DNA of 64,000 nucleotides from an uncultured Candidatus Binatia bacterium (GTDB lineage Bacteria > Desulfobacterota > Binatia > UBA9968 > CAXXLF01). This document shows, one piece after another, positions 44,583 to 63,178 of this stretch; positions within the stretch are counted from its first letter, which is position 1; every line of letters starts with the position of its first letter. The notes under the pieces were generated by a model that worked only from the letters and a program-made list of their open reading frames with translations, had not been told where the DNA came from and made no database searches. The stretch covers positions 401,680 through 465,679 of the forward strand of contig CBDCDW010000003.1 of assembly GCA_965215595.1 (NCBI GenBank). Reading direction: 5' to 3'. The position numbers and the translations under genes are program-made.

Positions 44583-45386
44583 ATGGAAGTACCTATGAAA
44601 AAGGTCCCAGCCCTGGAACTGCGAAACGTTTCTTATACCGTAGATAAGAAAAGAATCCTGGATTCCGTTGACTGGACAGTTCAACAGGGAGAGCACTGGG
44701 TGATTCTGGGGCCCAATGGATCGGGGAAAACCACGCTTCTCAAGGCTGCTTGCGGTTATATATGGCCAAATGACGGCGGTGAAATCTACCGCAATGGCGA
44801 AGTCTTGATCAATCTTCGGGATCTCAGAAAGAGCATTGGTTGGGTGACTTCCACACTGCCATTCGAAATACCTTCGCGCGAGAAAATCTTGAGCACAGTG
44901 GTATCTGGAAAGTTTGCTCAGATTGGACTCCTGGAAGGTCCTTGGGGAAGGTCCACAAAAAAGGATTACTCCCAGGCCGAGGAATATTTAGTTCAGATGG
45001 GTTGTGCCGATCTTTTGGATCAAGAGTTTGGCACCCTTTCCCAAGGGGAACAGCAAAGGGTTCTCATCGCCCGGGCGCGCATGACCAAACCTTATCTGAT
45101 ATTTCTCGATGAGCCCTGCGCCGGGATGGATCCGGGAGGAAGAGAAGATTTTCTAGAAAGTCTCCAAGAGCTTGGTAGTCAGAAACAGGTTCCGGCTCTT
45201 ATTTACGTTACCCACCACATCGAAGAAATCCTTCCTCTTTTTAAAAAAATGCTGATCTTGAAGAAGGGTAGGGTGCTTGAGGCCGGGACCACCAGCGCGC
45301 TCTTAAAACAAGATGTTTTAAGAAAACTATATTATGTTTCGTTGACTCTCACTAAAAAGAAGGGCCGCTATTGGCCCACGGGTTAG
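44583..45386 (+). CDS. Stand-alone ABC ATP-binding protein (ModF-like)
   Basis: GPNGSGKTT, LSQGEQQR, FLDEP and VTHH motifs. Confidence 0.92.
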   Translation: MEVPMKKVPALELRNVSYTVDKKRILDSVDWTVQQGEHWVILGPNGSGKTTLLKAACGYIWPNDGGEIYRNGEVLINLRDLRKSIGWVTSTLPFEIPSREKILSTVVSGKFAQIGLLEGPWGRSTKKDYSQAEEYLVQMGCADLLDQEFGTLSQGEQQRVLIARARMTKPYLIFLDEPCAGMDPGGREDFLESLQELGSQKQVPALIYVTHHIEEILPLFKKMLILKKGRVLEAGTTSALLKQDVLRKLYYVSLTLTKKKGRYWPTG

Positions 45387-45466
45387 TAGGAACCACCACA
45401 TTGGACCAGGGTCTGCATTACGTATCTAGTAAATTCACCAGTTTCTCGATGAAGGAAGTTGTGCCA

Positions 45467-45500
45467 AAGACGCAACCAAAGCGTCGATGAATTGCGTCCT
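45467..45500 (+). repeat. 34-bp palindromic site 1 (core GCGTCG)
   Basis: AAGACGCAACCAAA-GCGTCG-ATGAATTGCGTCCT. Confidence 0.85.
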
Positions 45501-45614
45501 GAGGCGGATCGGTTCTTTCGGTGCTCGGAGCAAGCCTACGGCGTCGCTCTTTGACACCCTTCAAGTTACTAATGAACTGAGTAATACGACGGCGGAGGCC
45601 ATTGGTGGCCAGGT

Positions 45615-46355
45615 TCAGTGGGCAATGAGCTCGCACTTTCCGTACTGAAGACCGCCCACACCGTCATCCTCAACTGATTTCAGGTCTGAAAAAATCTGCA
45701 GGTTAAATTGGGAGCCAAAGGCGTAATATTTTTTAATTTGCAAGTCCTGGTTAACCTCGACCCGGTCTACCTTGTAGCGTGTGCAATCGACCTTCCCGGC
45801 AAAGTGCGAGAACGCGCAGCGGAACAGGGAAAAACCGTCCGGAAGCTCTTTCAAACGCGTGGAGAACTGCCCCTCTTTGATTTCCTCGGAACTATAGGTG
45901 GTATCGAAGTCATACTTCCTTGTCACGGGGCAGCGATACTCCACGAGGGGGAGCCTCCCCTCTTCTGTTGGAGCTCCCGCCAGAATCCAACGGCGAATAA
46001 TCTCTTTTTCACTCGCGGGAAGGGGCTCTTCCGTTTCGGAAAACGGCATTATGTCATCCATCACTGTATTGAACAGTCCGGAATCTTCAGGTCTTCCTCG
46101 AACAATTTTCTCCGGATCAGCGCTTAGCTTTCCCAAATCAAGCACGAAGCCGAAGTCTCCCCTTGGACCCTTCTTCTCTCGTACCCCTTCGGGACCATGA
46201 CACTTTGCACACTTCGTCTCAAAGACTGTTTTCACTTCTTTCGCTAGTTTCGCCTTCTCCGGCTGAGAAAGCTTTTCCTGGCCCCCGACGGAGGAAACGA
46301 TTCCAAACGCCAAGAATATTCCGAAAAGGAGCCCACTCCTCGAATACAGATTCAT
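45615..46355 (-). CDS. Secreted c-type cytochrome domain protein
   Basis: Signal peptide; CAKCH; distal MP; RRWILAGAP. Confidence 0.8.
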   Translation of the reverse strand: MNLYSRSGLLFGIFLAFGIVSSVGGQEKLSQPEKAKLAKEVKTVFETKCAKCHGPEGVREKKGPRGDFGFVLDLGKLSADPEKIVRGRPEDSGLFNTVMDDIMPFSETEEPLPASEKEIIRRWILAGAPTEEGRLPLVEYRCPVTRKYDFDTTYSSEEIKEGQFSTRLKELPDGFSLFRCAFSHFAGKVDCTRYKVDRVEVNQDLQIKKYYAFGSQFNLQIFSDLKSVEDDGVGGLQYGKCELIAH

Positions 46356-46368
46356 ATCCTTAAAAACG

Positions 46369-47502
46369 CTATTTCCTCTTTCGAGCCGCTTTGCCCGAGT
46401 CGGCTCTCGCTTTAGCGACGAGTTTTTTAAGGCCGCTCACGTCCCTGTATTTGAACAGGTTGGCAATCATATACTTGCCCCCCGGTTTGGCGACGGTAAA
46501 CTTATCGGTGATCATGTCCTTGGAAATATCCATGCGCATGGAGTTACGGTCCGCATTCTTCTGCCATGCTAATTGCCCCTCTTTGGATATCATCCAATTT
46601 GCGAAAACTGTGGCTGCATTGGGATTAGGGGCGCGGTTCACCACGGCGAGCTGCCCCCAACCGCCGGAGAGATACGCCTCGGAGGTGGGTGCACGATAGA
46701 TTTCAACGGGTAAACCCTGTCTTTTGGCAGTCGCTACCTCAGTGCCCCTGGCTGCAATGTTCAGTTCATACTTTCCCGAGGCGACCCAGTCGATCATCTG
46801 CACGATGCTTCTCCCTATGGTGATTTCCTGCTCGGCGAACAATCGCTGGATGAATTTTGGTCCCATGTTCTTGTTGTAGTAGATGCCCTTCCAGGTGGCC
46901 AGCACGCCTCGCCTCGTTGGATCATAGGACACCATCTTGCCGCGCCATTTGGGATCGAGAAGGTCCTTGAAGCTCTTAAGCTCACCGGGCTTGTGCTTCT
47001 TGGTGTTATAGAGTGCGATGGTGGACGTGACGGTCCCTTCCATAAGAAAGAGGGACTTTTGGGGAACCGCATAATGATGCTGCTTCCTGAACCAGGCGGA
47101 CTGGTCCTTGGATTCTGGTAAGATTAACCGGGGTGGAAGCGGGTCAAAGTACCCCCTTTGGGCTAAGATGCCGCCAGTTCCTGCGCCTCCAACATAAATG
47201 TCCGCAATAAATTTTCCCGCCCGACGTTCGGCGCCGAGCCGGTTGGCATGTTGGCTTCCCGAACCGGGAACGTAGACCATCTTGATTTTGGGATAGACGC
47301 CTTTAAACGTCTCAAGGGCGTTAATGTACTGGATTCCCGGGGGGCCATAGACCCTGATACGCCCCTCTTTTCGTGCCGCAGCCAGGGTTTTTTCCCAGTC
47401 GGCCTTCCAATCCGCTTGTGCGGGTTGGTAAAAAGTCATCAGAAAAAGACATAAAAGCGTACAAAATGTGAAGAAAAGTCTCAGACGATAAACCATATTC
47501 AT
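46369..47502 (-). CDS. ABC substrate-binding protein (AfuA-like), no adjacent permease
   Basis: WEKTLAAARKEG, DLLDPKWRGK and APNPNAATVF motifs. Confidence 0.88.
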   Translation of the reverse strand: MNMVYRLRLFFTFCTLLCLFLMTFYQPAQADWKADWEKTLAAARKEGRIRVYGPPGIQYINALETFKGVYPKIKMVYVPGSGSQHANRLGAERRAGKFIADIYVGGAGTGGILAQRGYFDPLPPRLILPESKDQSAWFRKQHHYAVPQKSLFLMEGTVTSTIALYNTKKHKPGELKSFKDLLDPKWRGKMVSYDPTRRGVLATWKGIYYNKNMGPKFIQRLFAEQEITIGRSIVQMIDWVASGKYELNIAARGTEVATAKRQGLPVEIYRAPTSEAYLSGGWGQLAVVNRAPNPNAATVFANWMISKEGQLAWQKNADRNSMRMDISKDMITDKFTVAKPGGKYMIANLFKYRDVSGLKKLVAKARADSGKAARKRK

Positions 47503-47693
47503 TGCCTCCTAGATAATAGGATTTTTGAGAACCCGAGCAGTCTATTTGGAATAGGCGCCACTGTCAAATCGCAAAATACTGACCATGCCTTATGAGCTCG
47601 CAATATGCGGGTTCGATTGAAGATCAAGGCAGGACCAGATCAAATAGACCATGGTGATTTAACCAGTGGAACAACCCAAGATGCATTCTACTT

Positions 47694-47727
47694 ATTAGGC
47701 AATTAATGCGTCGTTTAATTGGATTCT
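47694..47727 (+). repeat. 34-bp palindromic site 2 (core GCGTCG)
   Basis: ATTAGGCAATTAAT-GCGTCG-TTTAATTGGATTCT. Confidence 0.8.
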
Positions 47728-47794
47728 GGGATGATTGACAGCCTTTTCCCCTGCGATATTGGTCTCTTAGTATCAAGCCAATTGAGTACCGAGT

Positions 47795-47911
47795 ATGGAA
47801 CGCAAACTCACTGCCATTCTTAGTGCGGATGTCGAAGGTTACAGTCGTCTGATGGGGAAGGATGAGGAAGCGACCATTCGCACCTTGGCTCCGCGCGGGG
47901 GAGGAGATTAG
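47795..47911 (+). pseudogene. N-terminal fragment of a class III adenylate/guanylate cyclase
   Basis: Translates as MERKLTAILSADVEGYSRLMGKDEEATIRTL, then unrelated residues and a stop; too short for the ORF track. Confidence 0.85.
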
Positions 47912-48060
47912 GCAAACTCACTTTCGTTAGGTGAGCAGAGGTTATAGAGATTCAAGCCAGCTTCAACGTATAGAGAGGATAAAATCAGAGTTGGGTCAAG
48001 ATTTTGTCAACGATTCGTGTATGATTCAGGTTGAAGTGTTCGAGTGCCAACCAAGTGGTT

Positions 48061-48366
48061 TCATTTCTTAAATACGCTAAAAAATTTCCCCAGTGCACCT
48101 TTGTCCATTTCAGACACAACCTCCAGTTCTCCGGCATCCAGCCATACACCTCCGCAGGAAGAACATTTATCCACAGCGATTCTCTTATAATCAATTTGAA
48201 TTAACTGCATTCCGCATTTGGGGCAGCGCATATAATGAAGTTCCTTGAGCTTCCTTTTGTCTTCCTCCACGAACTGTGCTTGTTTGTCTGCTTCCCGCTT
48301 TTTTCTTCTTTCAAATTCTACCTTGGCAAAATATTCTTCTTCCGTTTCGGTTGGCTTTCCAGGCAT
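48061..48366 (-). CDS. Zinc-ribbon (zf-TFIIB-like) protein
   Basis: EEEYF, CPKCG and CSSCGGVWLDAGEL motifs. Confidence 0.85.
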   Translation of the reverse strand: MPGKPTETEEEYFAKVEFERRKKREADKQAQFVEEDKRKLKELHYMRCPKCGMQLIQIDYKRIAVDKCSSCGGVWLDAGELEVVSEMDKGALGKFFSVFKK

Positions 48367-48775
48367 ACCCTATTCCTTTCTTCTGTCGGTTAGCAAAGGT
48401 CCATTGTGTCTTTGTGAAGCATTCTTACTTCGATGCGTTAAGCACTCTCATTGCGGTGATACCGCTACATATATAAAACCAATGTGTTGGAGTCAATGGG
48501 AGTGACCCCCATCAGTTAGTCAGTCAGGGGAGGGGTAAAAGTTAGAGCGCTCTAGGTGGGACAGAGTTGAGTTCGTTTTACGATTTGTTTACGATTGAAG
48601 TGTAGCCGGCCAGCGTCGATCTTTCGTACGACCAGCTAATTGAAAACCCTCATTACTCTAAGGGGTAGAAGATGTCCAGGTCCCCCCTGCAGTGCTCCAC
48701 ATCGGGCCGCCGTTTTCGTTTCAGGAAAGCATGCAGTAGGCCAATCGAAAGAGGAGTTTGAGTCGGGAAACGTCT

Positions 48776-49552
48776 TCAGTTGATTTCAAAGTCAAAATAG
48801 CGATTGGGAAATGGCTCGCCCCTTAAAGCGTAGTGCCACCATTCCTCTGGCAAATTTGTAAATCCGTACTTTTCCATAATCAATTTAAGGAGCAATCTGT
48901 TTACTTTTTGAATCCTCCCGATCTCTGGGTTGAGAGTATGTGATAGTGGGTGAAAACAGTCGTAAGCCGTTCCCATATCCAAGCTGTTGTCTTTGAAGCG
49001 CGTCTCATAGGGAAGATAACATTCAACCAATCCCTTCCTATCCTCGTAACCTGGTTGTTCAGGGAAAGGTAAGGGGACTATGGTGAGGTCAACCGTGCTT
49101 CCTCGGCTATGGCTGGATTTTTCAGCTATATACCCTTCCCTAAATAGGTCTCTCTTGGCTACAGTCGGATAAAACTCCTTCTTCATTCGGGTATCGGACA
49201 AATCTTTTGCCCACTCGACAAAGTCGCCAACCGCTCTTTGCGGTCGGTAGCAGTCGTAGATCTTGAGAGACAGCGAAAAGGCTCTTAGTTCTGCCTGCAC
49301 CGCAGCGAGGGCTTCTGCAGCCTGCCTTGTGATAATACATTTTGGAGCGTTGTATCCCCTGATTCTGTGACCGACAAAGTTGTAATTGCTGTAGTACCGG
49401 GCCTCAACAATGATGCTGGAATCAACATCTTGAAGCGAAACAAAAGTTTTCTTGAAGTCTTTTTCGTCTTCTGCAACTTCAGCGAGCGTGTGATGACTGA
49501 TTGCAAAACAAAAAAGCAAAACAAAAGCTCCACTAAAGGCAAGGAATTTCAT
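48776..49552 (-). CDS. ddpX: D-alanyl-D-alanine dipeptidase (VanX/DdpX, peptidase M15D), secreted
   Basis: YDCYRPQRAV, SSHSRGSTVD and EWWH motifs. Confidence 0.9.
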   Translation of the reverse strand: MKFLAFSGAFVLLFCFAISHHTLAEVAEDEKDFKKTFVSLQDVDSSIIVEARYYSNYNFVGHRIRGYNAPKCIITRQAAEALAAVQAELRAFSLSLKIYDCYRPQRAVGDFVEWAKDLSDTRMKKEFYPTVAKRDLFREGYIAEKSSHSRGSTVDLTIVPLPFPEQPGYEDRKGLVECYLPYETRFKDNSLDMGTAYDCFHPLSHTLNPEIGRIQKVNRLLLKLIMEKYGFTNLPEEWWHYALRGEPFPNRYFDFEIN

Positions 49553-49597
49553 GACGTCTCCTTATCGCTGAGGTCGTTCTGTGTCAAGGAACCTGTC

Positions 49598-49631
49598 AGG
49601 ACTCAATTAAAGCGTCGATTAATTGCGTCCT
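49598..49631 (+). repeat. 34-bp palindromic site 3 (core GCGTCG)
   Basis: AGGACTCAATTAAA-GCGTCG-ATTAATTGCGTCCT. Confidence 0.92.
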
Positions 49632-49721
49632 GGGGAGGATCAGTTCTCTTCGTGCTCAGAAAAAGCCTACCGCCTAGCCCTTTAGACACCCGCTCATCTC
49701 AATGTCTAACAATATAGGCAC
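49632..49721 (+). repeat. About 90-bp flank repeat following some palindromic sites (also 54336-54426 and, degenerate, about 45501-45570)
   Basis: Shared AGTTCTCTTCGTGCTCAGAAAAAGCCT..CGCCTAG...GACACCC...AATGTCTA-N6-TAGGCAC. Confidence 0.85.
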
Positions 49722-49938
49722 ATAGCTCATTTCTGGTATATACCTTCTCTGAGTTGGGCCTTCAATTATTCCTTAAATTTCAATGCACCAGCTGCTTTGC
49801 TGGTGGCTCAACCAAACACATCCATCTGGTTGGCCTGAGCCATGCTCTGTAAGCATTGTCGGACAAAATAGCCTCCCACATCGATGGTAAGTGTACAAAT
49901 TCTGACGTGAAGCCCCAATGTTCCAACGGAGGGTAAAA

Positions 49939-50823
49939 ATGGACAAATCATATGCATTATTTCTTCTTATATTCACTCTAGGCGCGATTGTAGTTCGTGC
50001 TTTAGCGTGGATTGTAGTTCTTATAAGTGAAAGGAGCAAAAAAGAAACTGCTGAGGTGAAGCTTAACATTCTGATTCGGTTGTCGAGGGACAATTCCATA
50101 AGGGAAGACGAAGATTTTGCGCAGTGGAATAGTACTTGCACACGAAGCGCGGAATTGTCATGGGAAGCCAAAACCTATTGTGCACTAACTGTTGTGAAGG
50201 ATTTCACTGAGGAAGGTCTTAAAGAAAAGGATTATACTGTTATGAAGTGGTGCCTTGATTTCGTACGGCCTGACAGATTTCACATCACGCAGGAGATGTG
50301 GGACCGCGAGCTTGGAGACCTTTATGATCAATGGGTGACCATCGGATAAGATAATTATCAGAATTTCGGATTATAGACTCACGATGAGGACGGGAAGCAT
50401 GACGGAATCAGCCAGGGACTTTTAGTCAATAAATATTTGGGAATTATTCGAAATCAAAACCCTGAGCGCTACAGCGCACACAGGTATTTAGGGGAGCGTT
50501 TTCTTCTTTTAGAGTACGATCCCCTTGCGTTGCCTGAGGAGCATGCGGGAATCAGTGACCTCTGCAAAGAAGTTCAGCAAAGCAAAGGTGAATTCTATAT
50601 CTGGATTAATGTAGATACAGGCTTTCTTGCGAAGGCTCAAGTTAAAGTTCAAGGTAGGAGCAAAGAAGGAGAACGGGTCGATATGGAGCTAAATTCTGTG
50701 TTTAGCTGCTATAATGAGAAAATAATTGTAGAACCACTTCCTTGGCTCAATGCAGTCTCGGATTCGGGCGGTGACAAAAAGATTGTAAATACCAAGGTAC
50801 CGATCCTACCTCATCATGAATAA
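49939..50823 (+). pseudogene. Membrane-anchored hypothetical protein interrupted by two in-frame stops
   Basis: ORFs 49918-50349 and 50437-50823 share a frame, separated by TAA at 50347 and TAG at 50374. Confidence 0.7.
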
Positions 50824-50897
50824 CGGAAAGTGAATTATGACTAACCGTTTGTCGTTCCGAAACAAAAACTAAATCCGCGCTCATAAACAGGTAGGGA

Positions 50898-52079
50898 ATG
50901 AAAAAGGTTCGCTACTTTCTATCATCGTCCATAATTGTCCTAACTTTTATAGCTGTTGTCGCGTTCTTTGGCATTGTTCCAGGCGTGGTTACAAAACGGA
51001 TGAATCCAGTAGCTTCTCAGCCACCTTATAACGCCTCTGAGCTAGCCACCAAGTTTCATCAGAAGTTGTTCATCGTCGATCTTCATGCCGATTCCCTGCT
51101 CTGGAATCGTGACCTTTTGGACTACGGAATCTATGGCCATGTAGATATTCCGCGCCTGCTGAAAGCCAATGTGGCGCTACAGATTTTCACTGTGGTGACA
51201 AAAGTTCCGCGGGGCCGAAGAATCGACGGTGGTACCTCTAGTGATACCCTCGACCTAATCACGCTGCTGTCACTAAGCCAGCGCTGGCCAGTGTCAACCT
51301 GGACGAGTCTAAGGGAGAGAGCCCTATACCAATCGCGCAGACTACGAGAGACAGCGGGCCGGTCCAACGGGAGGCTGGTACTCGTTAAGTCAAGTAAGGA
51401 TGTCAGACGATTCATGGAGAAACGAAGGGACAATTCAAACATGCTTGGGGGCCTTCTCGGAATTGAGGGTGCACACTCCCTTGAGGGCAAACTGGAAAAC
51501 GTGGATGTCCTATTTGATGCAGGTTTCCGAATGATGGGACTCACACATCATTTTGACAACGAACTGGGTTGCTCAGCTCATGGTAAGCGACGGTGTGGGC
51601 TGTCTCAATTCGGGAAACAGGTCATTCAGCGCATGGAAGAACTTAACATGATAGTTGATCTAGCCCACGGCTCTCATGCTCTTATCGAGGACGTTCTCGA
51701 CCTGGCCACGCGTCCAATTCTAGTTTCCCATTCAGGCGTACGGGGCACGTGCGACAACCAGCGAAATCTGCGCGATGAACAGATTCGCCGTATTGCCCAA
51801 TCTGGAGGCGTCATCGGAATTGGTTACTGGGAAAAGGCTGTTTGTGGCACCGACGCCAGATCCATAACGAAAGCGATGAGGTATACCGCTGACCTTGTTG
51901 GGGTGGACCACGTTGCGCTTGGATCGGACTTTGATGGTGCAGTCCGGGCTGCTTTCGACACCACGGGGATTGTACTAATCACGGAGGCGTTAATGGAACA
52001 AGCTTTTACAGAAATCGAAATCCGTAAGATCATGGGTGAAAATGTGCTTAGGGTTCTGAAAGAGTCGTTACCCAATTGA
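50898..52079 (+). CDS. Membrane dipeptidase (peptidase M19)
   Basis: DLHAD, GIEGAH, DLAH, SHSG and LGSDFDG motifs. Confidence 0.92.
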   Translation: MKKVRYFLSSSIIVLTFIAVVAFFGIVPGVVTKRMNPVASQPPYNASELATKFHQKLFIVDLHADSLLWNRDLLDYGIYGHVDIPRLLKANVALQIFTVVTKVPRGRRIDGGTSSDTLDLITLLSLSQRWPVSTWTSLRERALYQSRRLRETAGRSNGRLVLVKSSKDVRRFMEKRRDNSNMLGGLLGIEGAHSLEGKLENVDVLFDAGFRMMGLTHHFDNELGCSAHGKRRCGLSQFGKQVIQRMEELNMIVDLAHGSHALIEDVLDLATRPILVSHSGVRGTCDNQRNLRDEQIRRIAQSGGVIGIGYWEKAVCGTDARSITKAMRYTADLVGVDHVALGSDFDGAVRAAFDTTGIVLITEALMEQAFTEIEIRKIMGENVLRVLKESLPN

Positions 52080-52083
52080 GGCC

Positions 52084-52117
52084 AGGACGCAATTCATTAG
52101 CTCATTAATTGAGTCTT
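52084..52117 (+). repeat. 34-bp palindromic site 4 (core TAGCTC)
   Basis: AGGACGCAATTCAT-TAGCTC-ATTAATTGAGTCTT, starting 4 bp after a stop codon. Confidence 0.88.
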
Positions 52118-52121
52118 ACGT

Positions 52122-52155
52122 GAAACGTAATTAATGCGTCGTTGAATTGCGTCTT
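52122..52155 (+). repeat. 34-bp palindromic site 5 (core GCGTCG), tandem with site 4
   Basis: GAAACGTAATTAAT-GCGTCG-TTGAATTGCGTCTT. Confidence 0.88.
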
Positions 52156-52160
52156 GGAAC

Positions 52161-52205
52161 AATTGACAACCCTTTCCCCTGTGATATTGGTCTCTGAGTC
52201 AAGCC
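52161..52205 (+). repeat. Promoter-like flank repeat (also 47734-47779 and 54939-54975)
   Basis: ATTGACA(A/G)CC(C/T)TTT..CC.G(T/C)GATATTGGT shared by three loci. Confidence 0.8.
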
Positions 52206-52292
52206 CCATTAGTCAAGAGCCTCCCCCATCATTGATCAGGCTTCCGAAGCATTGTGAGGCCTCACAGAGAGATAGAGATTTGGAGGTCAGGT

Positions 52293-52733
52293 ATGTCTAC
52301 AAAAGTCCTTTTTGTATGTTTTGCAAATATGGAAAGAAGCCAGGTAGCCCGTGCGTGTTTTGATCAGCTCTCGCAGCATGACTCGGATAGTGCTGGCATT
52401 GGGGTGGACGAGAATATAGCAAGGCGGAATCCTCTGAGCAGGAAACTCAAAGACAACGGCACGGACGGAAGGCAAGTTGAGTACATCAGGAAGGCGTTTG
52501 GAGTGGATATCTCCGATAGGGAAAGGCAGCAACTGTCCCCTGAAATGGTCCATGCAGCCGACCTGGTCATTCTCATCGTGGAGAAGGACAAATGGCCTGA
52601 TTACCTTCAGGAGGGAGGATAAATAGTTTTCTGGGACATTCCAGATGCGTATAGACAAGATGATGGTTTCGCCGCCGACGTGTTTAGACAGGTACACAAT
52701 CGTGTTGAACATTTGGTCAAAGAGATAGGCTGA
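52293..52733 (+). pseudogene. LMW protein-tyrosine phosphatase / ArsC-like gene with an internal stop
   Basis: VLFVCFANMERSQ P-loop; TAA at 52620 followed in frame by IVFWDIPDAY...LVKEIG. Confidence 0.85.
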
Positions 52734-52765
52734 ACTGATAAAATTGATTAAACAGCCTATCTGCC

Positions 52766-52799
52766 CAGACTCAATTAAAGCGTCGTTTAATTGCATCCT
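52766..52799 (+). repeat. 34-bp palindromic site 6 (core GCGTCG)
   Basis: CAGACTCAATTAAA-GCGTCG-TTTAATTGCATCCT. Confidence 0.9.
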
Positions 52800-52946
52800 G
52801 CGTGAAATGATGCTTCTCGGGACTAAATAACTCTGCTGTTTAGCCTTATTGACATGGCATTTGGACTTTGATACGCGGGTAAGTTAAGAACTAAGAGATA
52901 GCCTCCCCCAGCCTTCAGTCTAAATTAAAGTGTTGGGAGGGAACAT

Positions 52947-53327
52947 ATGCCAGATAATTCCGAAGCGACACCGAGGTTGGGGTGGTTGGCGGGGACAGGT
53001 ACCATTCTGTCGATTGTTGCTTGCTACGGCACACTTGCGACAGTCGGATTGTTGTCGTTGCTGGGCGTCACCTTGGTCATCAACTCAACCGTGTGGGCGA
53101 GTACAATCAGCCTCTTTGCACTACTGGCTGTCGTGGGTGTGTTGGTGAGCTATCGTCGCCACCACATGGTGGCTCCACCAGTCATCGCCATAATTGGGGC
53201 AGCTTTAATTATTTGGGCGATGTTTGTCTCCTTCAACCGTGTCATTGAACTGACAGGATTTGCAGGACTACTGGTAGCGGCAATCTGGGACTGGCGTGCG
53301 AAGAAATGCGAGATTACTACAAGATAA
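52947..53327 (+). CDS. MerC-like four-helix membrane protein
   Basis: Four hydrophobic segments, Cys in TM1 (SIVACYG), SYRRHH loop; GGAGG RBS. Confidence 0.65.
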   Translation: MPDNSEATPRLGWLAGTGTILSIVACYGTLATVGLLSLLGVTLVINSTVWASTISLFALLAVVGVLVSYRRHHMVAPPVIAIIGAALIIWAMFVSFNRVIELTGFAGLLVAAIWDWRAKKCEITTR

Positions 53328-53380
53328 AGGACGAAATAACCACCAAAAGCATCGGTTGCTTCGTTAATTGAGTTCTCCAC

Positions 53381-53414
53381 CAAACGCAATGAATGCGTCG
53401 TTTAATTGCGTCCT
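53381..53414 (+). repeat. 34-bp palindromic site 7 (core GCGTCG), preceded by a half-site at 53363-53376
   Basis: GTTAATTGAGTTCT-N4-CAAACGCAATGAAT-GCGTCG-TTTAATTGCGTCCT. Confidence 0.88.
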
Positions 53415-53509
53415 GTATCTTCTGGTGGGTATATACCCTAGCCTGTGTATTCGCCTTATTCTTCATCTACGGGATGAATGGTCCTGAAATGACGTTCCTA
53501 TTGGCTTGC

Positions 53510-54091
53510 CTACTTCCCTTGTGGCGGGTCAACTTCAAGATGCCTGACATCGTTGAGCGACACGATGGACCAGCGGTCATCGTTCCAGACCAATTCGTTG
53601 AAGGCGATCCGCTTCCCTTCGTACACACGCTTGTCGGTGGTTTGCTCGATCACGTAGTCGAGGAACATGTGCGTCGCGCCACTATGTGAAACAACAAACA
53701 CGCGGCCACCAGGGTTCCCTTTGGTGATCTCGCCCATCACTTCGATCATCCGTGCTTGCACGTCGTTCCATGTCTCGAAGGCCCGCGGATACGGCAATAG
53801 CGGAAATTCGCTATTGTTGACCACCCTCCGGAAGCGTTTCTCACGTAACCTCATGTCTGTTTGAATACTCAGACCCTTTGCAGCGGCCAAAGGTTCGGCG
53901 GTTTCGATTGCTCTTCGGAGATCACTAGTGTAAATGGCCGTGATCTGCTCATCAGCCAAACGATTACACAGTGCCAGGGACATCTGCTGCCCATTCTCGT
54001 TAAGCGGCGTATCTATGTGTCCTTGGGCCCTGCCCTCAACGTTCCATTGCGTCTGACCGTGCGTTGTTAGGATAATTGAGCAAACAGGCAT
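53510..54091 (-). CDS. Histidine phosphatase (phosphoglycerate mutase) family protein
   Basis: THGQT.WN (RHG variant), SDLRRAIETA, LRE and VVSHSG motifs. Confidence 0.88.
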   Translation of the reverse strand: MPVCSIILTTHGQTQWNVEGRAQGHIDTPLNENGQQMSLALCNRLADEQITAIYTSDLRRAIETAEPLAAAKGLSIQTDMRLREKRFRRVVNNSEFPLLPYPRAFETWNDVQARMIEVMGEITKGNPGGRVFVVSHSGATHMFLDYVIEQTTDKRVYEGKRIAFNELVWNDDRWSIVSLNDVRHLEVDPPQGK

Positions 54092-54301
54092 GGGGTCTAA
54101 CTATTAAATGAGCTACGACGAGGATGCCAATTCTCGCGGCCTATCCTACAATGGGAAGCAGCCGATCGGAGCGTATCCGACAACGTGCAATTATGTCAAC
54201 TTGGAGTGAGCTGCTGCCATATGATCTCCAAGAAGCAGCTAAATGGCTTCTATGACAGCGGCAGTCAATACCAGGCCGCGGTTTTCATTGCCAGTGGCTG
54301 T

Positions 54302-54335
54302 AGGACTCAATTAATGCGTCGTTTAATTGCGTCTT
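54302..54335 (+). repeat. 34-bp palindromic site 8 (core GCGTCG)
   Basis: AGGACTCAATTAAT-GCGTCG-TTTAATTGCGTCTT. Confidence 0.92.
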
Positions 54336-54521
54336 GAGGTGGAATAGTTCTCTTCGTGCTCAGAAAAAGCCTCCCGCCTAGTTCCTTTGACACCCTGCCT
54401 ATCCTAATGTCTAGCCACTTAGGCACTAGACCCGGCTAGGCCGTTCTGTGCTCCCAGCATAAACCTAATTTTCCTATTCTATCTTAAGTAGTTAGCTGGA
54501 ATCTCGTATCCAGCAACCTTT

Positions 54522-54538
54522 TTGGCATATCCGTTGCT
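54522..54538 (+). promoter_or_regulatory. Sigma-54 (-24/-12) promoter
   Basis: TTGGCATATCCGTTGCT matches TGGCA-N6-TTGCW, 35 bp before the ATG at 54574. Confidence 0.7.
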
Positions 54539-54573
54539 CTACTTAGAGCTAAAGAAGAAAGGAGGGTCAGATA

Positions 54574-54912
54574 ATGAAAATTGGTCATCCGTCTAAGTTG
54601 AGAGTTCTAATGATAGCCCTGATCTTCGGGTCGGTGATGGTACTAGGACAAACCCAGCGAGCTGATGCCTACGCCGGGGGTGGTGAGGCAGGTTTGTTAA
54701 TGCTCTATGTACTATTTCTCTCCACAGCCAGTGTGGTTTGCGCCCCCGTGGCGGCTGTATCAAGCGCTGCATCGGACAAAGAGTTCGACGAGGCGTATGG
54801 GAACTGCTTCTTGCCTGTGTTGTGGTTGGGCGAACCCATCCCGGCGGAAGACGATGAGGATCTTCCTGAACCAACACCAACTCTCGTGGATGAGTATGAG
54901 GACGAAGAATAG
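54574..54912 (+). CDS. Small exported or membrane hypothetical protein with an acidic tail
   Basis: AGGAGG RBS, signal peptide and one further hydrophobic segment. Confidence 0.65.
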   Translation: MKIGHPSKLRVLMIALIFGSVMVLGQTQRADAYAGGGEAGLLMLYVLFLSTASVVCAPVAAVSSAASDKEFDEAYGNCFLPVLWLGEPIPAEDDEDLPEPTPTLVDEYEDEE

Positions 54913-55084
54913 TGTGGGCCGCCGTTTTCCATTTCAGGAATTGACAACCCTTTTTCCCGTGATATTGGTGCCTTGAAAGGATCTTCCCCTAGAATTGATT
55001 AGTATTCCCAGTAAAGTGACGCTAACGGAGGGACCCAAAGCGTTCCTGATAGAGATGTGCTGGATTCTAAAGAGGAGACCTTGA

Positions 55085-56441
55085 ATGAAAAAATATTACA
55101 CCAATTGCACGGTGTTTATCGCTGCCTTGATTTTGACCGGATGTGCGACTTTTGAACCTGGCTTACGTTACCAGGATCTGACCAGGCCGCGCCAGCCCGA
55201 TGTGAAAAGCGTGCAGGATGGTTTGGAGGTCTCGGTTGAAGAGTTTGCCTCCGAGAGCAAGGCCAAAATGGCCTTCGATGCTGATGTTGCCTCCTATGGC
55301 ATCCTGCCACTGCTGGTTCGTGTGGACAACTCTGGGTCTCAGAATTATACGGTGCTTAGGAGTGACATCAAAGTCTATCTGGGGGGTCAACTGCTATCGC
55401 CCATCATGAGTAACGAGGCTGCTAAAGAAGCGGGCACAAGAGAATATGCTGGAAAGGCGCTCGGCTGGACTGTGGCAACGGGACCGTTTTTTATTTTCTT
55501 ATGGCCTGCCACGATTGCTGGATCTGCTGCCCATACTCAGTCGGTCAACAAGAGGATAGTGCAACATTTTGAAAACCTTGCCTTCAATGATGCACGTCTG
55601 AAGCCAAAAGCAGACGGCCGCAGGGTTTGTTTACTTTAAGCTTCCGGAAGGAGTGGAAAAACTGAAGAACCTGACTGTGGAAGTTCAACCATCTGAGGAC
55701 AAAACCGGAAAGCGACTAACGTATAAACTTAATGTAAAGGGTTTATCTGTAGAGACTGGCGCAGCGGGCGCGGGAACAGCTACGACAGCCCAAACCCCAG
55801 AGGCGGCCATTGCCCCCAAAGTCGAACAAGGAAGCGGTCAGCCATCTCAAAAACTGGAGACTGCTTATGCCATCACACCGCCTGATTATAAAGTTGATTG
55901 GTCTTTGGTCAAAGAGCCTGTTTACAAAGATGGAGATTGGTGGAAGGTGAAGATGGAGAGCAAAGGCGTAGTCGGAGGGAGGTGCCGTTATGACTACTCT
56001 GATTACCTCCTGGAAATACAGGAAGGTAAGCCAAAGCTATATGGCATTGATGGCACGAACAAAGAAGAATTCGATTGCCCTGAGGTAGAGAACGAGATTC
56101 TGGGTAAGATAAAAAGGAAACTTAAATTTCCATTACACGTAGGTAATCGTTGGGCTCATCGTTACCTTTGGGAAGGACGATTTAGAGAGCGTTGGGTAAC
56201 AGTAGAATACAAAGTTCTGGGGCGGCAAAAGGTACAGACTCCAAAGGGGGAGTTTGAAGCATTTAAGTTAAGTAGTCGCGCGGTATGGCGGACCTCATCT
56301 GCCTACCATGAGCGTACAGAAAACTACTATTATTGCCCAAAGGTCAAAGCGATTATCCTGCACAAATTTATCTGGCTGGAAACAGAACAGTATAGGGCTG
56401 ACTCAACCGTCACTGTTGTGGACTTCAATGTGAGCCATTAA
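55085..56441 (+). pseudogene. Lipoprotein gene split by a 1-bp frameshift near 55610
   Basis: Lipobox LTGC; removing one base at CCAAAAG gives LKPKQTAAGFVYFKLPEG, in frame with ORF 55653-56441. Confidence 0.75.
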
Positions 56442-56471
56442 ACTCCCGTTAGTCGCAGGGCGAACGATTTC

Positions 56472-56504
56472 AGAGACGGCGTTCTACACCAGGTCGCCGT
56501 TTTC
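56472..56504 (+). terminator. Hairpin downstream of the lipoprotein gene
   Basis: AGAGACGGCG ... CGCCGTTTTCT followed by T-rich bases. Confidence 0.4.
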
Positions 56505-56531
56505 TTTCTAGTAAACTGTGCGTAACCGGCC

Positions 56532-56565
56532 AAGACGCATTTAAATAGCTCATTAATTGCGTCCT
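56532..56565 (+). repeat. 34-bp palindromic site 9 (core TAGCTC)
   Basis: AAGACGCATTTAAA-TAGCTC-ATTAATTGCGTCCT. Confidence 0.88.
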
Positions 56566-56954
56566 GGCGGTCCAACGCTGAGAAAACCCACGCCCAGAGA
56601 GGCTTTGGAGGCAATAAGGAATGGCAAATTTCACATCTATCCCACCCGGGTTTAAACGTCTTAAATAACTACGCACGAAATATGCATGAACCAATGCGAA
56701 GATGGGCAATCTAAGTCCAAATTGGGAAACCTCGGGCGTTCCATTTCACGCTTTGTACCAGTAATTTCGTTGATTAAATTAGTCTTTTCCTCCGGTTTCC
56801 ACCTGCATGACATGGCCCACGTACAAGTGATAAGAGTAGCAATATTTTTGCCAGGGAGGTTTCCTATGATTGGGCGGTTTTTAATTATTTTCGGTCAGTT
56901 CCTTATAAGTAAGGATGAACAATCGTTGGAGTGGCAAGATATCTTGCCTATGGA

Positions 56955-61732: not shown

Positions 61733-63178
61733 CGTGTTAAGCCATCAAAAAATCTAACCCTAGCGGGATTCGTTGCGTCATTACAAAATCTAACCGAAGT
61801 CGTCTCGCATCTGTCGTTTCATGTCCTGTTGTTGGCGCTGTAGTTTCTTGCTGAAGGTCCAGTTTCTCCACGGCGTTTGTTTCAGCGGTGGTCTCTCTCG
61901 TGGGGCTCTGTCTGCATGGCTGGCCAGCTTGTAGATCCGCTGCAGTTGCTGATCGATTCGGGTAGAGAGCTCGAAGGGATCAGTTGTCTTAAGCGTGTGC
62001 TTGAGGGCTGCCAGCTTTTTGGGGTCTCCCTTTCGGGACTCCACGACCCGTTCGAACGGGGTACGAGGCGTGTCATAGCGGCGAATAAGTCGAGAGCCTA
62101 TACGGATCTTGCATCGCAGCTTCATGGAGGGCTGGAACAGATTCTGGAAGATCCTAAGCTCATCATAGAGCTGGTTGGCGGCCTCTTGGGCCTTTGCGGT
62201 GTCGTAGCGATCCCAGCCCATAAGCTTTCTGACATGGGTCCAGTTTTTCTGCTCGATGTGCGCGTTGTCATCTTTTTTGTAGGGACGCGAGCGGGTGAAC
62301 TGAATGGTGTGGCCAGCTGGGCGTTGTTGACAGAAGGCAAGAAGGCGGTTGTTGATAAACTCACTGCCGTTGTCGGAGTCGATCCCCTTGAGGGGAAAAG
62401 GAAGCTGGTGTTCGATCTCGGTGACCGCATTCAAGACACCCAAAGCGCTCTTACCCATGACGGCCTTGCGCTCTACCCAGCAGGTAGCAATGTCGACACA
62501 GTCCAGACTATGGACAAACTCCCCAACCGCTGAGGCCCCTGAGTGTGACACCAGGTCAATCTCCAGATAGCCCGGCCGGTTCACATCCCAGTGATCGGTC
62601 TTAATCGGGATCATCTGCTTTAGTAGCGATCCGGGCCGAGTGGTGCCATAGAGTCGGCGTTTCACGATGTGCTTGGTTTCCCTCAGGCGCCGATCCATCT
62701 GACGGGCGCTGATGGCCAGGAGCTGATCCTCTAACGGTTGGGTCAGCTCGAAGTGTTGCCTTATCCAGGGCAACCAGTGTACAAGGGCGGCCTTCAGACG
62801 TTGGGAGCACAGATACCCCGAGGCCTCCCACACCTTTGCCAAAATCCTTACCATTGCCCGATTGTATGTAGGAGAGCGAGGTGCACCCCGTTTGCGTACA
62901 GTTGCCTCGGGCAAGGGCCGGTTTAAAAGCCAGATGGCATATTTGCGGTTGTAGCCGCAAACCTTGCAGAATTCCTCTAGCATCGTTCCCTTCTGTGCCC
63001 GTGGTGCGTGCTGATAACGATCATAGATGGATCGTAAATACTCCTGCTTGGATCGTCGTGCCATGGTGAACCCTTCCATTGTTGCCCTCCTTGAGCTCTA
63101 ATGTGAGCCCTTGGAGGGTTAGAATCACAAATGGCGCAACGTATCGCCCTTGGGTTAGATTATATATGGCGCAATACG
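61733..63178 (-). mobile_element. 1446-bp DDE insertion sequence, copy 2
   Basis: Nearly identical to 8701-10146; 4-bp TSD CTCT. Confidence 0.95.
61790..63079 (-). CDS. Integrase-core DDE transposase
   Basis: Same protein as 8749-10047 except that a SNP gives a stop three codons earlier. Confidence 0.93.
   Translation of the reverse strand: MEGFTMARRSKQEYLRSIYDRYQHAPRAQKGTMLEEFCKVCGYNRKYAIWLLNRPLPEATVRKRGAPRSPTYNRAMVRILAKVWEASGYLCSQRLKAALVHWLPWIRQHFELTQPLEDQLLAISARQMDRRLRETKHIVKRRLYGTTRPGSLLKQMIPIKTDHWDVNRPGYLEIDLVSHSGASAVGEFVHSLDCVDIATCWVERKAVMGKSALGVLNAVTEIEHQLPFPLKGIDSDNGSEFINNRLLAFCQQRPAGHTIQFTRSRPYKKDDNAHIEQKNWTHVRKLMGWDRYDTAKAQEAANQLYDELRIFQNLFQPSMKLRCKIRIGSRLIRRYDTPRTPFERVVESRKGDPKKLAALKHTLKTTDPFELSTRIDQQLQRIYKLASHADRAPRERPPLKQTPWRNWTFSKKLQRQQQDMKRQMRDDFG

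Follow-up and report, generated by a model that had tools for sequence, protein, structure and literature searches.

Recombinases of the Cre type exchange strands within the spacer of their sites; matching spacers are needed, and the orientation of the spacer sets the outcome (PMC10250229). loxP and the heterospecific lox sites comprise 34 bp, in which an asymmetric 8-bp spacer separates two inverted repeats of 13 bp, and in the Cre-type systems covered by that report the site is predicted from the DNA around the recombinase gene (PMC10250229). In Acinetobacter plasmids, accessory modules are bounded by short dif sites (pdif), the modules carry no recombinase in cis, and one replicon can hold several spacer classes, the identity of the spacer deciding which sites recombine (PMC13141974). 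As described in that study, excision and exchange need direct orientation and near-identical spacers; a pdif site is 11 + 6 + 11 bp, its XerC arm differs from its XerD arm, and adjacent sites point in opposite directions, with C and D modules in alternation (PMC13141974).

We analysed a 64,000-nt stretch of DNA (the window) from an uncultured Candidatus Binatia bacterium. The window contains an array island at 45385..56925 (borders approximate), which consists of two modules with seven cassettes, nine full sites and one half site; the island and the sites, spacers, tail and promoter-like element described below are on the + strand. The GC content of the island is 0.45–0.50, below that of the upstream DNA. 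Each full site comprises 34 bp, as does a lox site, with 13-bp inverted arms flanking an 8-bp centre. A tyrosine-recombinase core site has two inverted arms around a short (6–8 bp) asymmetric centre, and the same arrangement is found here as 13 + 8 + 13 bp, with left and right arms that are alike, in contrast to pdif. The inner 6 bp of the centre falls into two classes only, GCGTCG (G class) and TAGCTC (T class).

Module 1 opens with a G-class site at 45467..45500 (AAGACGCAACCAA AGCGTCGA TGAATTGCGTCCT), contains further G-class sites at 47694..47727, with degenerate arms, and at 49598..49631, and ends with a T-class site at 52084..52117 (AGGACGCAATTCA / TTAGCTCA / TTAATTGAGTCTT). The stop codon of an M19 dipeptidase gene (50898-52079) lies 4 bp ahead of this T-class site. 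A terminator-like repeat is present near 48,700. A 4-bp spacer, ACGT (52118..52121), separates the T-class site from the G-class site that starts module 2 (52122..52155; GAAACGTAATTAA / TGCGTCGT / TGAATTGCGTCTT). Module 2 continues with G-class sites at 52766..52799, 53381..53414 (left arm CAAACGCAATGAA) and 54302..54335, and ends with a terminal T-class site at 56532..56565, behind which lies a conserved non-coding tail (56566..56665; nhmmer match). The G-class site at 53381 is preceded by the remnant of a T site (53364..53380), in which a lone right arm (TTAATTGAGTTCT, 53364-53376) is followed by a 4-bp spacer, CCAC. Remnants of the same type, half a T site followed by 4 bp and a G site, are also found at C6:315115 and C7:1723731. 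These positions agree with the original prediction, made from the letters of the window, which had placed TAGCTC within the same arms at 52084 and 56532, a TAGCTC and a GCGTCG site 4 bp apart at 52084-52155, and a right arm 4 bp ahead of a GCGTCG site near 53363 (the arm starts at 53364). It had also assigned a variant left arm to both G sites downstream of these gaps; the variant is indeed present at both, but xAAACG is not specific to doublet G sites, with 7/24 against 18/87 among the other G sites (p=0.41).

The 34-bp palindromic signal is real and recurs genome-wide. A position-weight scan with a threshold of >14 bits gives 177 matches in the genome and 0 in a shuffled genome, and the sites of the genome number 166 (111 G and 55 T), again with 0 in the shuffled genome. 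Arm pairs exactly 8 bp apart occur 113 times, while each of the other gaps that occurred (0–39 bp tried) is seen 1–2 times. The centre is the most conserved portion of the site. Specifically, its inner 6 bp is asymmetric and 96–100% invariant inside each class, and its first base is variable (A60/T42 among G sites). A CGTC motif is present in the arms, inside the paired portion, and in the G centre.

Tabulation of centres, orientation and spacing over the genome, as had been suggested together with the original prediction, yields the two centres only and a strict grammar. Arrays are kb-spaced, with nearly all sites in the same orientation, and follow the pattern (G..cassette..)n T. Among neighbour pairs of the 166 sites, G>G occurs 55 times, G>T 49 times, T>G 26 times and T>T once; 131/133 pairs have the same orientation and 2 are opposite, unlike the inversely oriented neighbours of pdif. 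The orientation is uniform inside arrays although 78/212 ORFs run the opposite way. All 24 pairs less than 60 bp apart consist of a T site and then a G site, with the 4-bp gap in 22 and a 2-bp gap in 2, and no G-T, G-G or T-T doublet is present among these close pairs of genomic sites. Outside the doublets, all spacings are at least 166 bp, with medians of 1.2–1.4 kb. The doublets are direct by their centres, and their 4-bp spacer has the genome-wide consensus R-C-G-Y. In metagenome contigs (n=70), the close pairs are T-4 bp-G in 14/14 cases, and neighbour pairs have the same orientation in 75 cases and the opposite orientation in 0.

G-bounded cassettes have a median length of 1.3 kb and hold 1–3 genes. 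A T site closes every run of these cassettes, and the next G site follows at 2–4 bp in 24/26 cases; the T-G doublets are therefore module junctions, which is what had been proposed for the composite sites of the window. The first G sites of arrays have a T remnant ahead in only ~3/30 cases (read by eye). The flanks of the window modules, compared by inspection for a target-site duplication around G...T modules, differ, and the start of the tail is constant.

Judging by their arms, sites of the two centre classes form separate pools. Arm variants are strongly class-specific, with p values from 2e-4 to 3e-14; for example, L12=C is found in 2/102 G sites and in 28/52 T sites, and L6=T in 49/102 G sites and in 4/52 T sites. 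Such a pattern would be produced by crossover classes that are mutually incompatible. The right arm of T sites tracks the downstream context, with R2=G in 21/24 doublet T sites against 6/31 other T sites (p=4.6e-7), as expected if exchange occurs in the centre. Over all site pairs, which are non-independent, the linkage of arm to flank is weak (10.4 vs 9.9 identities of 13), and its direction is as predicted. The left and right arms of a single site vary independently.

The explanation that we favour, with a probability of about 0.5, is that the sites serve recombination in the manner of lox or dif, that their spacers fall into two incompatible classes, and that the recombinase is encoded elsewhere. 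The 34-bp elements would be duplex recombination sites of the lox/FRT/dif type, in which the recombinase would bind the two 13-bp inverted arms and the invariant asymmetric inner 6 bp of the 8-bp centre would serve as the strand-exchange (overlap) region. GCGTCG and TAGCTC would be heterospecific, namely G would recombine with G and T with T. G sites would bound single cassettes, and one T site would end each module. The T-4 bp-G doublet would be the joint of two modules and the closure point of a circular module, for which every G site and every T site would be a possible point of entry. The fixed gap and semi-conserved doublet spacer would be accounted for by inheritance of the doublet from a single ancestral composite, from which it probably spread. 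A module bounded by G and T sites has the layout of a recombinase-mediated exchange cassette, as with heterospecific lox variants. In contrast to Cre/loxP, natural sites here number in the hundreds and form kb-spaced arrays, and it is from sequence that we infer recombination.

Like REP/BIME elements, the sites are short, high-copy, extragenic palindromes with more than one variant in composite arrangements. The family could thus be REP/BIME-like, consisting of palindromes that function as DNA or RNA hairpins and owe their spread to an HUH (RAYT or IS200-type) transposase, with T and G as two REP variants. The 166 extragenic copies of a 34-bp palindrome fit this reading, as do the 32 Y1_Tnp matches of the genome, of which about ten are RAYT-like long ORFs, and the CGTC motif in the arms and G centre is reminiscent of a CGTC-tagged REP super-family that lacks a dedicated transposase (PMC3733652). 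However, CGTC REPs as described have 8–9-bp stems, 4–5-nt loops and an unpaired tag (PMC3733652), whereas stems here are 13 bp, the centre is 8 nt and CGTC lies inside the paired arm. The window sites form weak DNA hairpins (-3.3 to -7.1 kcal/mol), and a T.C mismatch at L6/R8 is present in about half of the G sites. No compensating changes are seen: at every variable mirror pair the observed complementarity equals the independent-column expectation, with mutual information <=0.11, in a comparison of limited power in which 8–9 of the 13 pairs hardly vary. BIMEs show alternating orientation and short spacing (PMC2817692), whereas the orientation here is direct and the spacing is in kb. Y1 transposase genes are not enriched near sites (2/32 Y1_Tnp matches within 5 kb of a site against 9% for random positions; nearest 964 bp), no RAYT-type gene is flanked by sites, and the sites occur in islands that are absent from the sister species. 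The orientation, the spacing, the lack of arm covariation and the lack of a flanked RAYT-type gene weigh against the BIME-like mosaic that had been offered as the alternative reading, and we consider a REP-type origin quite improbable.

Both classes are conserved in the family. The G 22-mer is present in 4/4 other genomes of the family, where it is identical across three genera, and in 0/36 genomes of two sister families; the T class is also present in 4/4 other genomes of the family. The array of the window is absent in its entirety from sister species G001, in which the end of an ABC-ATPase gene and the end of metH are ~45 bp apart with no site between them. Compared with G001, the island starts ~75 bp ahead of its first G site and ends ~360 bp beyond its last T site, so that neither border coincides with a site. 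For two further arrays, the empty-site comparison with G001 showed no clean synteny and was uninformative.

The cargo of the arrays is diverse and accessory, with unrelated cassettes between identical sites. One cassette is present, at 98.6% identity, in two different arrays with different neighbours; in the site upstream of its copies, the right arm is identical at 13/13 positions and the left arm at 9/13. Cassette paralogues are mostly 70–90% identical and therefore old. An exact 8-kb duplicate (C5:454478-462480 = C6:1-8002) does not end at a site and therefore gives no crossover point. Such observations could point to relics that have no dedicated machinery, one ancestral composite repeat having been multiplied, cassettes included, through duplication and general homologous recombination, so that the grammar would reflect descent only. 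The divergence of the paralogues, the inherited appearance of the doublet spacer and the tail, and the position of the duplicate end and island borders away from sites are consistent with relics. Against them stand the inner 6 bp, which is nearly invariant, and the 22-mer, which is identical across genera, while the cassettes diverge or are unrelated; site invariance amid diverging cassettes requires purifying selection on the site. Unrelated cargo between identical sites also argues against mere descent, which we regard as very improbable.

In the window, a promoter-like element (TTGACA ... TGTGATATTGG) is located at 52163..52190, 7 bp past the G site at 52122, and precedes a low-molecular-weight phosphatase-like gene. 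A near-consensus element of this kind lies on the same strand 6–7 bp past 33/111 G sites and is lacking at the other 78. The first ORFs behind these elements belong to 26 unrelated clusters among 30, and at promoter-linked G sites the palindrome centre is ~60 bp ahead of the presumed start. Judging by their sequence, the 52163..52190 element and its kin may act as promoters.

The recurrence of this unit at a fixed distance before 26 unrelated clusters is unexplained by crossovers in the centre and fits a regulatory or architectural site, at which a dimeric protein would bind the palindrome; the site would serve genes acquired horizontally as an operator, activator site or insulator, and the arrays would have been built by another route. 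The behaviour of the arms as independent duplex half-sites and the lack of a nearby recombinase also fit such a site; the latter, together with the island borders off sites and the few T remnants at array starts, counts against recombination. However, most dimer operators have a free spacer, whereas the centre here is asymmetric and the most conserved portion of the site. A regulatory role is also at odds with the uniform orientation of sites in arrays whose ORFs face both ways and with the G sites that lack such a promoter, and it leaves the second class, the (G)nT grammar, the T-4-G doublets and the tail unexplained. We therefore judge this alternative unlikely. If it were correct, control of more than 100 horizontally acquired units by one and the same 34-bp signal would be unusual in its own right.

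If the sites are recombination sites, their enzyme would be encoded elsewhere in the genome and would most likely be a tyrosine recombinase, of which the host Xer pair is the only one found family-wide. In contrast to Cre-type systems, no recombinase is found near any array. Tyrosine recombinase genes lie within 5 kb in 1/13 cases, compared with 9% for random positions; specifically, G000 has 13 PF00589 matches, none of which is beside an array except a C-terminal fragment. A tblastn search with 11 tyrosine recombinases against 208,668 bp of metagenome array contigs is negative; among 150 of the 178 ORFs of such contigs, none belongs to an integrase, transposase or resolvase family, and no serine recombinase is found in G000 or G001. 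The only tyrosine recombinases present in all five family genomes are two Xer-like genes. Genomes of the sister families searched, in which no sites appeared, encode the Xer pair as well, and the dif-like sites of the genome look unlike the 34-bp site.

Several candidates for the recombinase were rejected. The phage-type integrase genes adjacent to arrays in G002 are unrelated and lie beside tRNA genes, the Xer-like gene directly behind a T site in G004:C174 is unique to G004, and the other candidate recombinase contigs carry no sites. No recombinant junction or circle is seen at the window locus among metagenome contigs, which drop rare forms. Apparent joints in run X2, in which site flanks are joined to the promoter-like element or to the terminator-like repeat near 48,700, were rejected as evidence of excision; they represent other loci or organisms. 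The two incompatible crossover specificities put forward in the original prediction are thus supported in part, by the separate pools, the class-specific arms and the T right arm that tracks its flank, but not by a recombinase beside the arrays or a recombinant junction at the locus. In this respect the arrays resemble pdif modules, which are likewise accessory, bounded by short sites, with several spacer classes on one replicon, and served by a recombinase not encoded in cis (PMC13141974). Unlike pdif, they are chromosomal, belong to another phylum, have only two classes in a fixed order, and possess T-4-G doublets, a tail and a site-linked promoter.

Integrons and CALIN arrays likewise comprise mobile-looking cassettes with diverse accessory roles, can lack an adjacent integrase, and have at one end a special site with a conserved platform. 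The sites might accordingly be unusual attC and attI sites, used as folded single strands by an integron integrase, with T as attI and G as attC. The polarity of the arrays is integron-like, in that one end has a special site with a conserved non-coding platform and the other is open. An integron integrase is encoded in the genome (TIGR02249 pieces of 233 + 70 + 124 bits), and a C-terminal integrase fragment lies ~50 bp from the G site at C7:1723815. However, the same genome has a classical array of ~100-bp attC sites with RYYYAAC / GTTRRRY-type ends next to an IS-interrupted intI gene (C4:148466-151214), and no G or T site is present within C4:130000-170000. An attC site is defined by R''/R' boxes (consensus RYYYAAC / GTTRRRY), extrahelical bases and a length of ~57–141 bp. 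The sites described here are 34-bp near-perfect palindromes with neither attC boxes nor extrahelical bases, and the nearest box matches are one base off (read by eye). In G001, which bears sites, the integron-integrase model matched only two Xer-like genes, and the class-specific arms argue against T x G exchange. Unlike integron cassettes, those of the arrays often have their own promoter, and their genes run in both directions. An integron origin is thus extremely improbable. Such arrays are undescribed in the results of our literature searches, and a search for Binatia with integron found nothing.

Taking recombination at two-class sites further, we tentatively propose a two-tier natural cassette exchange, in which one trans-encoded recombinase would act on lox-like 13-8-13 sites with two heterospecific spacers. 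G x G exchange would move single cassettes, and G/T-bounded modules would be stable against self-excision and would be exchanged or integrated as units via the T-4 bp-G joint; many cassettes would bring a portable consensus promoter 7 bp from the site. Such exchange would constitute an integron-like platform for gene capture with an origin separate from that of integrons, restricted to a single family of uncultured Binatia and, in the metagenome contigs and sediment-labelled runs examined, abundant. Should the sites be used for recombination, they would represent a second, independent solution to the task of integrons, that is, storing and shuffling accessory genes, relying on simple duplex sites, on a pair of incompatible spacer classes whose order is strict, and on cassettes equipped with a promoter of their own. 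Cassette exchange between heterospecific sites, a genome-engineering trick, would then exist in nature, and the recombinase/site pair would be of practical interest. The sequence rules (two centres, 4-bp joint, tail and promoter 7 bp from the site) allow automatic annotation of cassette boundaries in Binatia metagenomes.

The tail is a further conserved feature of the arrays. About 100 bp is conserved after terminal T sites, with 40 copies in the genome, 29 of which lie directly behind a T site, and the tail is found in G001-G003 as well. Considered as RNA, it matches no Rfam family at E<=1, and neither strand has a consensus fold. Plasmid Xer sites such as cer and psi consist of a core site and ~100–200 bp of conserved accessory DNA on one side, and the T site with its tail resembles this layout.

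The repeat unit is a 34-bp palindromic site. An 8-bp centre separates a 13-bp left arm, AGGACGCAATTAA by consensus, from its inverted copy, the 13-bp right arm TTAATTGCGTCCT. Nine full sites, starting at 45467, 47694, 49598, 52084, 52122, 52766, 53381, 54302 and 56532, lie in the window in the same orientation, together with a lone right arm at 53364-53376. Specifically, seven of the nine have the centre W-GCGTCG-W (class G), and those at 52084 and 56532 carry x-TAGCTC-x (class T) within the same arms, as originally noted. Both 4-bp gaps noted there are also present: in one doublet ACGT separates the T site (52084-52117) from the G site (52122-52155), and the lone right arm, which begins one base after the noted 53363, is separated by CCAC from the G site at 53381.

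We scanned the window's genome (G000; 6.0 Mb, seven contigs) for further sites. The arm at ≤1 mismatch occurs 85 times, versus once for a reversed control. Left and right arms are spaced by exactly 8 bp in 113 cases, versus one or two for each other gap that occurred (0–39 bp tried). A weight-matrix scan gave 177 sites above 14 bits, in 37 clusters, versus none in a shuffled genome; after removal of an exact 8-kb duplicate and of matches below 20 bits, 166 sites remained, 111 G and 55 T. There are only two centre classes, with the inner six bases 96–100% invariant and the first centre base unconstrained (A60/T42 in G sites). An 8-kb stretch with three G sites is found twice with one mismatch, at G000:C5:454478-462480 and at G000:C6:1-8002; one copy begins at a contig end, and the repeat may be a true duplication or may stem from the assembly.

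The sites follow a strict order. Among neighbours at most 10 kb apart, G is followed by G in 55 pairs and by T in 49, and T by G in 26 and by T in one; two pairs are in opposite orientation. All 24 pairs less than 60 bp apart are T then G, with a gap of 4 bp in 22 and 2 bp in two, and the minimum gaps are 544 bp for G-G and 166 bp for G-T. The arrays thus read (G-cassette)n-T, and beyond each T site the array stops or the G of the next module comes at once. The cores are therefore not random, and the 4-bp gap recurs genome-wide. The doublet spacer has the consensus R-C-G-Y, of which the last three bases match the left flank common to G sites in general.

The best-supported reading, with a probability of about one half, is that these are lox/dif-like sites with two heterospecific spacer classes, acted on by a recombinase supplied in trans. 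In an excerpt of PMC10250229, Cre-type sites consist of 13-bp repeats around an 8-bp spacer within which strands are exchanged, and the spacers of two partners must match; by comparison with that excerpt, the 34-bp sites share the format, and would share the logic, of Cre/lox with heterospecific spacers. They would also share the logic of Acinetobacter plasmid dif modules, which, in an excerpt of PMC13141974, are without their own recombinase and are mobile when directly oriented sites have a common spacer. A circular module with a T-4-G joint could enter any G site, giving G...T-4-G, or equally any T site, giving T-4-G...T, and such entry would reproduce the observed grammar. Descent from one composite would suffice for the fixed 4-bp gap, with no function of the gap required, consistent with the semi-conserved spacer and with a T right arm specific to doublets.

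Arm variation bears on this mechanism. The variants at left-arm positions 6, 9 and 12 (L6=T, 49/102 G vs 4/52 T; L9=A, 97/102 vs 23/52; L12=C, 2/102 vs 28/52) and at right-arm position 12 (R12=C, 38/102 vs 46/52) are class-specific, and the G and T classes appear not to exchange arms. The T right arm tracks its downstream context (R2=G in 21/24 T sites of doublets vs 6/31 other T sites, p=4.6e-7), and the T left arm does not differ between the two groups, which suggests separate histories for the two arms of T sites. Where near-identical cassette copies lie in different arrays, the right arm of the upstream site is identical at 13/13 positions and the left arm at 9–11/13; across all site pairs, arm-flank linkage has the predicted direction and is weak. 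To judge from these sequence comparisons, the tests together fit exchange inside the centre and within one class only.

The palindrome could instead represent a REP-like hairpin, which we consider quite improbable. At every variable mirror pair, complementarity is that expected from independent columns (in G sites, L6 G49/T48 opposite R8 C92 gives 0.45 observed vs 0.46 expected), in a test whose power is limited by arm positions that mostly hardly vary, and as DNA hairpins the sites of the window are weak (−3.3 to −7.1 kcal/mol). The arms thus behave as two independent duplex half-sites. Integron attC-like sites might also be considered, and this is barely credible. Tested defining features of the pdif, integron and REP/BIME families are absent from the 34-bp sites, which are therefore members of none of them.

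That the unit is a regulatory or architectural binding site is unlikely, and its main support is that the same site-plus-promoter unit stands ahead of unrelated genes, for which the recombination model does not account. Specifically, in 33/111 G sites the right arm is followed 6–7 bp on, on the same strand, by a promoter-like element close to consensus (TTGACA ... TGTGATAT); the window copy at 52163-52190, TTGACA ... TGTGATATTGG, follows a G site. The first downstream ORFs form 26 unrelated clusters among 30, and the leaders are not conserved. G000 holds 99 loose copies of the element. The recombination reading also leaves unexplained the array beginnings and the island borders, which lie outside the sites: relative to the sister species G001, the window array ends ~75 bp and ~360 bp beyond its outermost sites.

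Terminal T sites are trailed by a non-coding tail of ~100 bp (window copy 56566-56665). Of 40 copies in G000, 29 directly follow T, three follow G and eight are without a site. The tail is conserved across three genera and is also found in G001 and two further genomes of the family (G002 and G003), where it follows ~17/22 distinct T sites; it matched no Rfam family, and no consensus fold was found.

Recombinase searches of the family genomes and of metagenome array contigs yielded no assignable enzyme. G000 has 13 tyrosine-recombinase and 32 Y1 transposase matches, with no enrichment near sites, and no serine recombinase was found in it; the metagenome array contigs gave no recombinase by tblastn, nor by Pfam among 150/178 ORFs. 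The sites might be relics without machinery, a very improbable reading. The tyrosine recombinases common to the family are the Xer pair only, also present in the sister families searched, and the dif-like sites of G000 look unlike the 34-bp site. Paired 28-bp dif-like sites, identical or one base apart and 4–5 kb apart (G000:C7:612513 and 616436; G000:C5:579480 and 584328), possibly mark Xer-dependent integrated elements.

Three candidates were rejected. The integron integrase is part of a classical integron elsewhere in G000, whose attC sites are canonical (C4:148-166 kb), the integrases near G002 arrays are unrelated tRNA-island integrases, and the Xer-like gene beside a T site is unique to one family genome, G004. 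In that locus (L003, G004:C174:1767-2865), a tail-less T site is followed after ~120 bp by a complete Xer-like gene, whose 315-aa product is 36–40% identical to the family's Xer proteins; one 75%-identical fragment is its only other occurrence, also in G004. In the classical integron (L001, G000:C4:148000-166000), intI directly follows imuB-like and dnaE2-like genes and is interrupted by an IS3-like element; the dnaE2-intI neighbourhood also occurs in G002. The gene is followed by an array whose attC sites are ~100 bp long and belong to two or more types, and by a ~2.5-kb element in two near-identical copies 5.5–5.7 kb apart.

The window array is flanked by an ABC ATPase gene and metH, which in G001 are ~45 bp apart with no intervening site; the whole 11.5-kb array is thus an insertion or deletion difference. 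Its cargo includes a solute-binding protein with a cytochrome-c-like protein, a zinc-ribbon protein, a VanX-type M15 peptidase, an M19 dipeptidase, MerC, a histidine phosphatase, hypothetical proteins and a low-molecular-weight phosphatase homologue whose frame is broken by a stop. The last gene (52254-52740) has an in-frame TAA at 52620-52622, the frame running on to 52734, and is a pseudogene unless the stop is read through. The 107 cassettes of G000 have a median length of 1334 bp, 55 with a single ORF; 134 ORFs run along the G-to-T direction and 78 oppose it. Cyclase-domain proteins, ABC_sub_bind binding proteins, GFA and bactofilin recur. Just past metH, a 429-aa ORF (61790-63079, minus strand) has a weak rve (integrase core) match under the Pfam cut-off. 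A MITE-like 146-bp repeat (L054:9145-9290; G000:C7:1463144-1463289) has at least 19 copies of ~90% identity in G001.

Such site-bounded cassette arrays are of an already known kind, of which we rate the two-class G/T arrays a new form; full-text searches of literature outside the subscription journals listed no description of such arrays and no paper joining 'Binatia' and 'integron'. The G 22-mer (≤2 mismatches) has 4, 12, 32 and 76 matches in the four other family genomes and none in 36 genomes from two sister families of the order. The T class is present in all four, some sites there being counted on both strands. Most exact matches among species-representative genomes come from MAGs that bear the title Candidatus Binatia or 'Deltaproteobacteria bacterium'; a few others are singletons on short contigs of MAGs with other labels.

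Seventy metagenome contigs (208,668 bp) hold 113 G and 31 T sites, with no opposite-orientation pairs found, and 14/14 close pairs are T-4 bp-G with a spacer of the same kind as in G000. A second recurrent joint, T, ~78 bp of tail and G (start-to-start 111–112 bp), occurs in ~5 metagenome cases (L064, L068, L071, L110 and L118) and in G003 (L030, G003:C95:900-2100). In two sediment-labelled runs, bins that contain a site reach summed contig depths in the thousands, against tens elsewhere, and contigs of a near-identical organism end at the sites. A hairpin with a T run behind it, resembling a terminator (window 48690-48725), recurs just ahead of sites in sediment-labelled contigs, and a similar hairpin precedes the T site in L003.
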